NCBI GenBank assembly: GCA_000004695.1
Contig: CM000152.2
Span: 3,680,001 to 3,744,000, forward strand
Reading direction: 5' to 3'
Origin: Dictyostelium discoideum
Lineage: Eukaryota
Length of the DNA: 64,000 bases
A program made the translations under genes and the position numbers. The notes under the pieces are model-generated. The model had not been told where the DNA came from. It saw only the letters and a program-made list of their open reading frames with translations, and ran no database searches. This document shows, one piece after another, positions 14,633 to 15,215 of the stretch. Each line of letters begins with the position of its first letter. The first letter of the stretch is position 1.

Positions 14633-14860
14633 TTCTTCCAAATTGTTGTAGGGAATTTTTTTTGAAATTTCGCTTTCTAAACGGCAGTGAATTTTTACAC
14701 TAAAATACACTGTTTATACATAGTGTAAAAATTCACTAAATTTTTTTTTTTTATAATTAAATTAAAAAACAATTTATTTAATCAGAACAATAAAAAACCA
14801 ATTTTATTCAGTTATTTGCTTGTTATTTATTTTTTTATAACAAAAAAATTTAGTTTGCGC

Positions 14861-14903
<43 letters not shown>

Positions 14904-15215
14904 CAATTATTTTTTTCAATTTTTTTTTTATCGAAACAATTTTATTTTATTCCCCAAAAATGAAACAATCAAAAATAAATGAAATAAAAAATTATTTAAT
15001 ATTAACTTATTTTTGTGTCTTCATTACATAAAAAAAAAAAAAAAAGAAAAATGAAAAATAAAAAAAAAAATAAAAAAAATAAAATAAAAATAAAAAAAAA
15101 GAAAAATAAAAAAAAAAAAAAAAAAATAAAAAAAAAAAAAAAAATTGGCTCAAATCTAACAATTTAAATTGTTATTTAATTCTTAAACAACAAATAATTG
15201 TTTAAAATTAGTTTT
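14633..15215. mobile_element. Unclassified interspersed repeat / MITE-like element: hairpin module (14633-14745) + arm (14760-14870) + ~260 bp AT-rich core + inverted arm (15135-15215)
   Basis: 14633-14830 is ~90% identical to 60541-60760 (second copy). It contains a perfect 16-bp-stem palindrome gtgaatttttacacta…tagtgtaaaaattcac. 15135-15210 is the reverse complement of the arm sequence (best match to 60690-60760), so the locus-1 copy is flanked by imperfect terminal inverted repeats of ~75-110 bp. Family not identified from memory. Confidence 0.5.

Follow-up and report, generated by a model that had tools for sequence, protein, structure and literature searches.

The stretch of Dictyostelium discoideum DNA analysed here (the window, 64,000 nucleotides) contains two copies of a hairpin repeat, termed U, that are specific to the laboratory strain and are not a MITE; absence from other genomes was judged in four genomes at one site (locus 2) and in a single genome at the other (locus 1). 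The two insertions share the left terminus ATTGTTGTAGGG and extend to different right ends, giving 211 bp at locus 2 and approximately 1.8 kb at locus 1. Among the explanations compared, we lean with somewhat less than even confidence towards one in which U, a terminal piece with a fixed end from a larger, low-copy dispersed repeat of the NC4/AX lineage, was captured or copied during break repair.

Strain assignment and genomic surroundings

The G+C content of the window is 21.4%. The proteins encoded at 10296-11048 and 13324-14079 were identical to the D. discoideum AX4 entries DDB_G0280727 and DDB_G0280733, respectively, and the AX4 gene model DDB_G0280783 corresponded to the ORF at 59898-60353 with 100% identity over its 124 amino acids. 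In comparison with chromosome CM142509.1 (GCA_054883475.1), the window differed only by homopolymer lengths, a few SNPs, and a gap of 100 Ns. From the AX4-identical proteins and the match to CM142509.1 it follows that the window is AX4-type laboratory-strain chromosome 3. Because GCA_054883475.1 (locus tags ACTFIT) is a chromosome-level assembly with proteins identical to those of AX4, we infer that it represents the AX2-214 strain of PMC12745789. Both loci were present in this independent long-read assembly, with differences in homopolymer lengths only, which rules out an assembly artefact. The 100-N gap (19640-19739) is located 3 kb to the right of an inverted gene cassette described below, so the structure to the right of locus 1 is scaffolded and not contiguous in the window assembly; single Ns were found at 31762 and 31764.

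By gene numbering, the window adjoins DDB_G0280717, the edge marker gene of the tgrBC locus. This gene bounds the D. discoideum tgrBC self-recognition locus, a "hypermutable hotspot" for which repeated double-strand breaks and non-homologous repair were proposed to generate diversity (PMC12745789, 2025).

A cassette of pirin and ependymin-like genes occurs three times in the window (8136-11245, 11338-14256, and inverted at 18301-16524; 85-93% identity), and comparable clusters were observed in L015, from another part of the chromosome, and in L008 and L014, from other isolates. The gene at 60763-63681 belongs, together with L001/L002, to a row of four tandem UPF0746 (SAP-domain-like) paralogues with lengths of 890, 983, 936, and 972 amino acids; array size and gene lengths vary between isolates. 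Both arms of the published miRNA ddi-mir-7097 were perfectly matched on the minus strand at 59208-59295 (5p, 59275-59295; 3p, 59208-59228), and a second, diverged 5p-like copy was found at 59317-59337, with an inverted repeat at 59183-59324. Located 1.2 kb leftward of locus 2, the ddi-mir-7097 gene is unrelated to U in sequence.

Unit U and its hairpin

The unit is best delimited at locus 2, where it spans 60543-60753 on the plus strand and is composed of a 99-nt head, a run of 17 Ts, and a 94-nt tail. BLASTN aligned 14642-14824 to 60543-60726 with 91.9% identity over 185 bp, in agreement with the approximately 200 bp at approximately 90% identity reported in an initial annotation of this DNA. 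A second match, overlooked there, joined 15159-15263 on the minus strand to 60649-60753 with 100% identity over 105 bp. The head at locus 1 (H1, 14642-14740, plus strand) was identical to 60543-60641 at all 99 positions, and the left edge of the locus-1 insertion coincides with the first base of this head.

Each head contains a perfect hairpin with an 18-nt loop (14686-14737 at locus 1, 60587-60638 at locus 2), the stem arms of which read AGTGAATTTTTACACTA and TAGTGTAAAAATTCACT at both loci. The palindrome and its loop had been described correctly, and the stem comprises 17 bp, one pair more than the 16 bp given initially. The two hairpins are the sole perfect stems of at least 16 bp in the 64-kb window that are not of low complexity, and no perfect complex stem of this length appeared in 30 first-order Markov simulations. 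Folding, which the initial annotation had proposed as a check, gave z-scores from −4.3 to −6.8 (as RNA, the whole unit scored −5.2 and −4.3; as DNA, the hairpin scored −5.7 and −6.8). The repeat is genuine and beyond chance, and the original description of an interspersed repeat with a hairpin at two loci stands, the hairpin being well above chance.

Searches of the whole window against Rfam at gathering thresholds gave no matches; a permissive Rfam search of 14400-16600 returned a single, mir-3047-like match at chance level (E = 0.12). None of the published ddi-miRNAs checked (PMC4894637 and the supplement of PMC6161686) matched U. The head core was absent from the metagenome, prokaryotic-genome, and viral collections scanned for exact matches, and strings from the head and the hairpin had no match in a full-text literature search. 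Besides the two loci, no copy of U was found in approximately 100 kb of laboratory-strain DNA and none in approximately 205 kb from wild isolates; the laboratory-strain segments L009 and L015 and five ACTFIY loci carrying an identical actin gene contained no extra copy.

The insertion at locus 2

Locus 2 lies between two convergent genes, as initially annotated: a UPF0235/DUF167 gene (59898-60353, plus strand) and a UPF0746 gene (60763-63681, minus strand), the last of the tandem array. The orthologous intergenic region was compared in four other genomes (L004-L007), of which ACTFIW and ACTFIR are labelled D. discoideum, and ACTFIY and ACTFIZ are labelled D. cf. discoideum. U was absent from all four, and the spacer measured 171-224 bp versus 409 bp in the window. 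Alignment is clean in both flanks, and in place of U the other genomes carry approximately 35 bp, TGAAAATGGAAATTAATTT(T/A)TTATTAAAAAATTTT. The locus-2 copy, which is identical in AX2-214, is a derived, lineage-specific insertion.

The left junction, CAAAGGTT|ATTGTTG, has no microhomology. At the right junction, 5 nt of microhomology were found, ATTGT being present in the empty site (L007) and at the end of U, and this right end falls inside the perfect palindrome TAACAATTTAAATTGT. Comparison of the filled with the empty site revealed no target-site duplication at locus 2, only the ambiguous ATTGT. The candidate of a 5-bp ATTGT duplication was rejected, since it needs an extra 35-bp deletion and locus 1 shows no such duplication. 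Short (AT)n runs were observed approximately 25-30 bp to the left of the insertion point in L004 and L006. The boundary of U is 9 nt past the stop codon of the minus-strand UPF0746 gene; U therefore supplies the 3′ untranslated region of that gene, with a presumable consequence for its expression.

The composite block at locus 1

For locus 1, the empty site was that of one isolate, ACTFIR (L008), which shows the same layout of plus-strand pirin/ependymin-like cassettes, a GTPase-like pseudogene, and inverted cassettes. In the window, a composite block of approximately 1.8 kb (14642-16456) replaces 234 bp of the pseudogene; collinearity with L008 stops at 14643 and resumes at approximately 16457-16459. 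Segment 14440-14643 is homologous to L008 15049-15258 (88.8% identity), approximately 14644-16458 (1815 bp) stands in place of L008 15259-15492 (234 bp), and 16459-16502 is homologous to L008 15493-15536 (97.7%). A further replacement follows, of L008 15537-15692 (156 bp) by 16503-16819 (317 bp), before homology returns between 16820-17046 and L008 15693-15900 (81%). The 234 bp replaced in the laboratory strain contain an (AT)34 microsatellite (L008 15320-15388).

Homology to L008 stops at CCAAAT|, at most 2 nt from the first base of U. The junction contains an ambiguous AT, and the comparison of the filled site with the empty site in L008 showed no target-site duplication. The age of the insertion is uncertain because the empty-site homologue is only 88.8% identical in the left flank. 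The original placement of locus 1 between cassette copy 2 (to approximately 14256) and the inverted copy (from 16524), beside an orphan GTPase-like exon, was borne out, and the GTPase-like remnant carries a DTPGF motif.

From left to right, the block consists of the head, a T12 run, a diverged plus-strand arm, poly(T), approximately 125 bp of unique sequence, poly(A), a minus-strand arm, a 14-bp tandem repeat (15258-15305, 3.4 copies), a GC-rich segment with a 46-aa ORF, three palindromes, and an inverted copy (16137-16264) of 14992-15117. The plus arm (T1+, 14753-14866, plus strand) is a diverged tail with 73-77% identity to the locus-2 tail (T2) and to the minus arm (nhmmer E = 0.018). The minus arm (T1−, 15142-15263, minus strand) is a headless tail and includes the 105 bp that are identical to locus 2. 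Inverted arms had been reported at 14760-14870 and 15135-15215; they exist, but with the spans given here and with 77% identity, and what scores highly as an inverted match between them is poly(T) against poly(A).

Both arms extend beyond the end point of locus 2, T1+ as TTTAGTTTGCGCCAA and T1− as TAGATTTGAGCCAA, with the common form ...TAG(A)TTTG(C/A)GCCAA followed by poly(T). An 18-bp perfect palindrome, TAACAATTTAAATTGTTA (15157-15174), is located at the tail end, and the locus-2 copy stops inside it. A motif scan identified the palindromic motif (A/G)GGGGGTACCC(C)TC three times within T-runs of the block (16012-16025, 16101-16113, 16123-16136), with no further occurrence in the window or in the 8 loci scanned.

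At the start of the inverted pirin/ependymin cassette, a snap-back junction was observed: 16501-16527 is a plus-strand copy of 11601-11627 (27 bp), followed by 16524-16660 as a minus-strand copy of 11563-11427. The two copies overlap by 4 nt (16524-16527), and 37 bp between the source segments are missing.

The 46-aa ORF and its other copies

The 46-aa ORF of the GC-rich segment (15606-15746, minus strand) is 100% identical to AX4 DDB_G0269070 and DDB_G0294605. Identical AX4 gene models were found under at least four accessions on three sequence records, which are probably chromosomes. Because the ORF recurs on other AX4 sequence records, the 1.8-kb block belongs at least partly to a low-copy dispersed repeat; a link of the other ORF loci to the head or the tail is putative. 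The records name an ordinary hypothetical gene, without a transposon suffix. The ORF had no Pfam match, no real homologue except itself in an exhaustive HMMER search, and no significant RNA structure. An exact-match scan of the GC-rich segment, in metagenomes only, gave nothing, and literature searches with DDB_G0269070, neighbouring gene IDs, and transposon names yielded nothing useful. The AX4 transposon gene DDB_G0269056_RTE (TRE5-A ORF2) has a gene number near that of DDB_G0269070. A 20-bp perfect palindrome centred on TTTCTGAATATTCAGAAA (15575-15594) lies just downstream of the stop codon of the ORF.

Shared left end and mosaic identity

Homology between the two loci starts at 14642/60543, and homology to the respective empty site ends at 14643/14644 at locus 1 and at 60542/60543 at locus 2. 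For a locus-2 piece drawn at random from the block, the chance of the ends coinciding so closely is estimated at approximately 3 in 1800. A search of the window for the terminus in inverted form (ATTGTTGTAGGGAA, up to 2 mismatches), and for the first 49 nt likewise inverted, found nothing.

Identity between the loci is distributed unevenly (Fisher test, p = 3e-8). Next to the head with its 99 of 99 identical positions, T2 (60660-60753, plus strand, ending inside TAACAATTTAAATTGT) is identical at 94 of 94 positions to the reverse complement of 15159-15252 in T1−, and has 73-77% identity to T1+, the arm adjoining the locus-1 head. The locus-1 arms are old and diverged (77%), unlike the 100% identical head pair and T1−/T2 pair. 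Because both arms continue past the end point of locus 2, U at locus 2 is a truncated piece; nor is it a straight copy of any contiguous locus-1 stretch. Its source is either a third copy or a switch of template between the inverted arms, within the T-run.

Origin of U

In the reading that we favour, U would have reached both sites by break repair, through capture or copying of donor DNA, and not by MITE-type cut-and-paste. Junction microhomology, the palindromic end point, (AT)n at or near both sites, and the snap-back junction at the neighbouring hinge argue for break repair. Ordinary cut-and-paste MITE behaviour is excluded because target-site duplications and terminal inverted repeats are lacking and target DNA is deleted at both sites. 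Since no contiguous locus-1 stretch combines head, T-run, and a T2-type tail, a third, "master" copy in which these are contiguous would be expected elsewhere. The reuse of one exact end base is unexpected for random filler DNA, so the common left end may be a fixed physical DNA or cDNA terminus, either of an excised or nicked element or of a run-off copy. The hairpin and the terminal palindrome may have a role in the DNA itself, as sites of breakage or template switching. Against this reading, only the two loci and no third copy were found in the approximately 100 kb of laboratory-strain and 205 kb of wild-isolate DNA, and both halves of the locus-2 unit have 100% identical counterparts at most 520 bp apart at locus 1, which also fits direct copying.

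Such direct templated repair, without any repeat family, is possible though doubtful. A break in the locus-2 spacer would have been patched from two segments of locus 1, which lies 46 kb away on the same chromosome: the head would have been copied on the plus strand, synthesis would have switched in a T/A homopolymer to the inverted arm (15263-15159) and halted in the palindrome, and the end would have annealed via ATTGT. The presence of both halves at locus 1 in opposite orientations at full identity favours this course, as do the join within a homopolymer (source runs of T12 and A11, product run of T17), the loss of approximately 35 bp of target without a target-site duplication, and the 5 nt of microhomology at the right junction. 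The 4-nt overlap of the snap-back junction at the neighbouring hinge and the edge marker of a published rearrangement-prone locus (PMC12745789) next to the window are also in keeping with it. However, copying must then have started without microhomology exactly at the first base of the older locus-1 insertion, for which we estimate a probability of approximately 0.2% by chance; two template switches are required; and the 46-aa ORF on other AX4 records places part of the block in a repeat family.

One-ended, duplication-free transposition of a rolling-circle/Helitron-like or tyrosine-recombinase type seems unlikely. On the minus strand, the copies would have variable 5′ ends and a common 3′ end (...CCCTACAACAAT) closely preceded by a palindromic hairpin, and one common and one variable terminus, the lack of target-site duplications, the perfect 17-bp subterminal hairpin 45 nt from the common end, and the ambiguous AT at the locus-1 junction agree with such a process. 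The termini, however, are not TC...CTRR, the distance of 45 nt stands against one of approximately 10-12 nt, and neither A|T nor T|T flanks the copies consistently. Both sites also lost target DNA, and the window yielded no Rep/helicase or recombinase gene. To our knowledge, one-ended elements of the rolling-circle or tyrosine-recombinase type have not been described in D. discoideum. A bolder proposal, to which we also give little credence, would make the head the nick site or terminus of an undescribed mobile element without target-site duplication or terminal inverted repeats, of rolling-circle or recombinase type and recently active in the NC4/AX lineage, the hairpin and palindrome of which create or attract breaks beside the tgrBC locus.

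It is very unlikely that the head is a small-RNA gene under selection (miRNA-like or another hairpin RNA ending at the T-run), with the tails as flanking DNA. Such a gene could account for a head that is identical at 99 of 99 positions beside a diverged locus-1 tail, and for the terminator-like layout of hairpin, 4 nt, and T12-T17; the weak mir-3047-like match (E = 0.12) and the known miRNA gene ddi-mir-7097 at 1.2 kb may be added. But the 17-bp stem is not extendable and is too short for a 21-nt duplex, its perfect palindrome suggests a DNA-level rather than an RNA feature, no match reached any Rfam gathering score or appeared in the miRNA lists checked, and internal T8 and T5 runs would stop RNA polymerase III. 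The head is, moreover, absent at the matching wild-isolate sites checked, which argues against a conserved gene at these positions.

The MITE-like or foldback element of approximately 580 bp with terminal inverted arms, moved by a transposase, that the initial annotation had proposed is already largely refuted and in our view highly improbable: inverted arms of 113 and 111 nt at locus 1, a short, non-coding, AT-rich unit, and near-identical sequence common to two copies speak for it, but the arms lie inside an inserted block of approximately 1.8 kb with the head outside them and are only 77% identical, the locus-2 copy has a single arm, the head terminus has no inverted copy in the window, and both sites lost target DNA (35 bp and 234 bp) without a target-site duplication.

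Two further candidates were rejected. A solo LTR would fit a unit starting with TGTTG, but at locus 1 the tail runs on beyond the point where the locus-2 copy stops. Derivation from a NUMT, rDNA, or a plasmid would leave the fixed end unexplained.

Significance

The two insertions beside the tgrBC locus are resolved to the base and specific to the laboratory-strain lineage, and they provide concrete substrates for the break-repair model of PMC12745789. Both delete target DNA and reuse the same donor end, with microhomology at the right junction of locus 2; one site has an (AT)34 microsatellite in ACTFIR, and the other has a short (AT)n run just upstream. If the reading as an undescribed element were true, a specific sequence would be linked to the breaks at the "hypermutable hotspot". 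If U were a fragment of a catalogued transposon, the result would be one of routine annotation.

Comparison with known systems

The catalogued DNA-transposon families of D. discoideum include Tdd, DDT, and thug (Glockner et al. 2001, as summarised in PMC5633606). Compared by description, U resembles them in its host, its AT-richness, and its membership in the low-copy class of "complex repeats"; the thug-S-derived miRNA_can_D3 (PMC4894637) was absent from the window. The lack of tRNA genes in the window by ARAGORN speaks against TRE or DGLT elements, which target such genes. Unlike a non-LTR retroposon or SINE, U has a common end without an A-tail and lacks target-site duplications. Unlike a miRNA precursor, which has an imperfect stem and a duplex of approximately 21 nt, it forms a 17-bp stem that is not extendable.

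With MITEs and foldback elements, U shares its small size, AT-rich and non-coding sequence, inverted repeats with a hairpin, and insertion polymorphism between strains. It differs from both in having neither terminal inverted repeats at its boundaries nor target-site duplications and in that the copies share one end only; the locus-1 arms are, unlike those of foldback elements, internal and diverged (77%) and not the ends of a mobile unit. Helitrons likewise produce no target-site duplication and have a subterminal palindromic hairpin near one conserved end, with the other end variable. In contrast to their 5′-TC and CTRR-3′ termini and a hairpin approximately 10-12 nt from the 3′ end, U shows the shared minus-strand end ...CCCTACAACAAT and a hairpin 45 nt away; target DNA is deleted, and no Rep/helicase gene was seen in the window.

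The remaining class compared is that of break-repair filler insertions, comprising NUMT-type capture, microhomology-mediated break-induced replication, and large templated insertions. As in these, U lacks a target-site duplication, target DNA is lost, a junction shows microhomology, and the insert is identical to DNA elsewhere in the genome; it is also composed of multiple segments, switches orientation at a homopolymer, and has microsatellites and palindromes nearby. Arbitrary ends are normal for such fillers, whereas U reuses the same left end base in two events, indicating a donor whose terminus is physically fixed.
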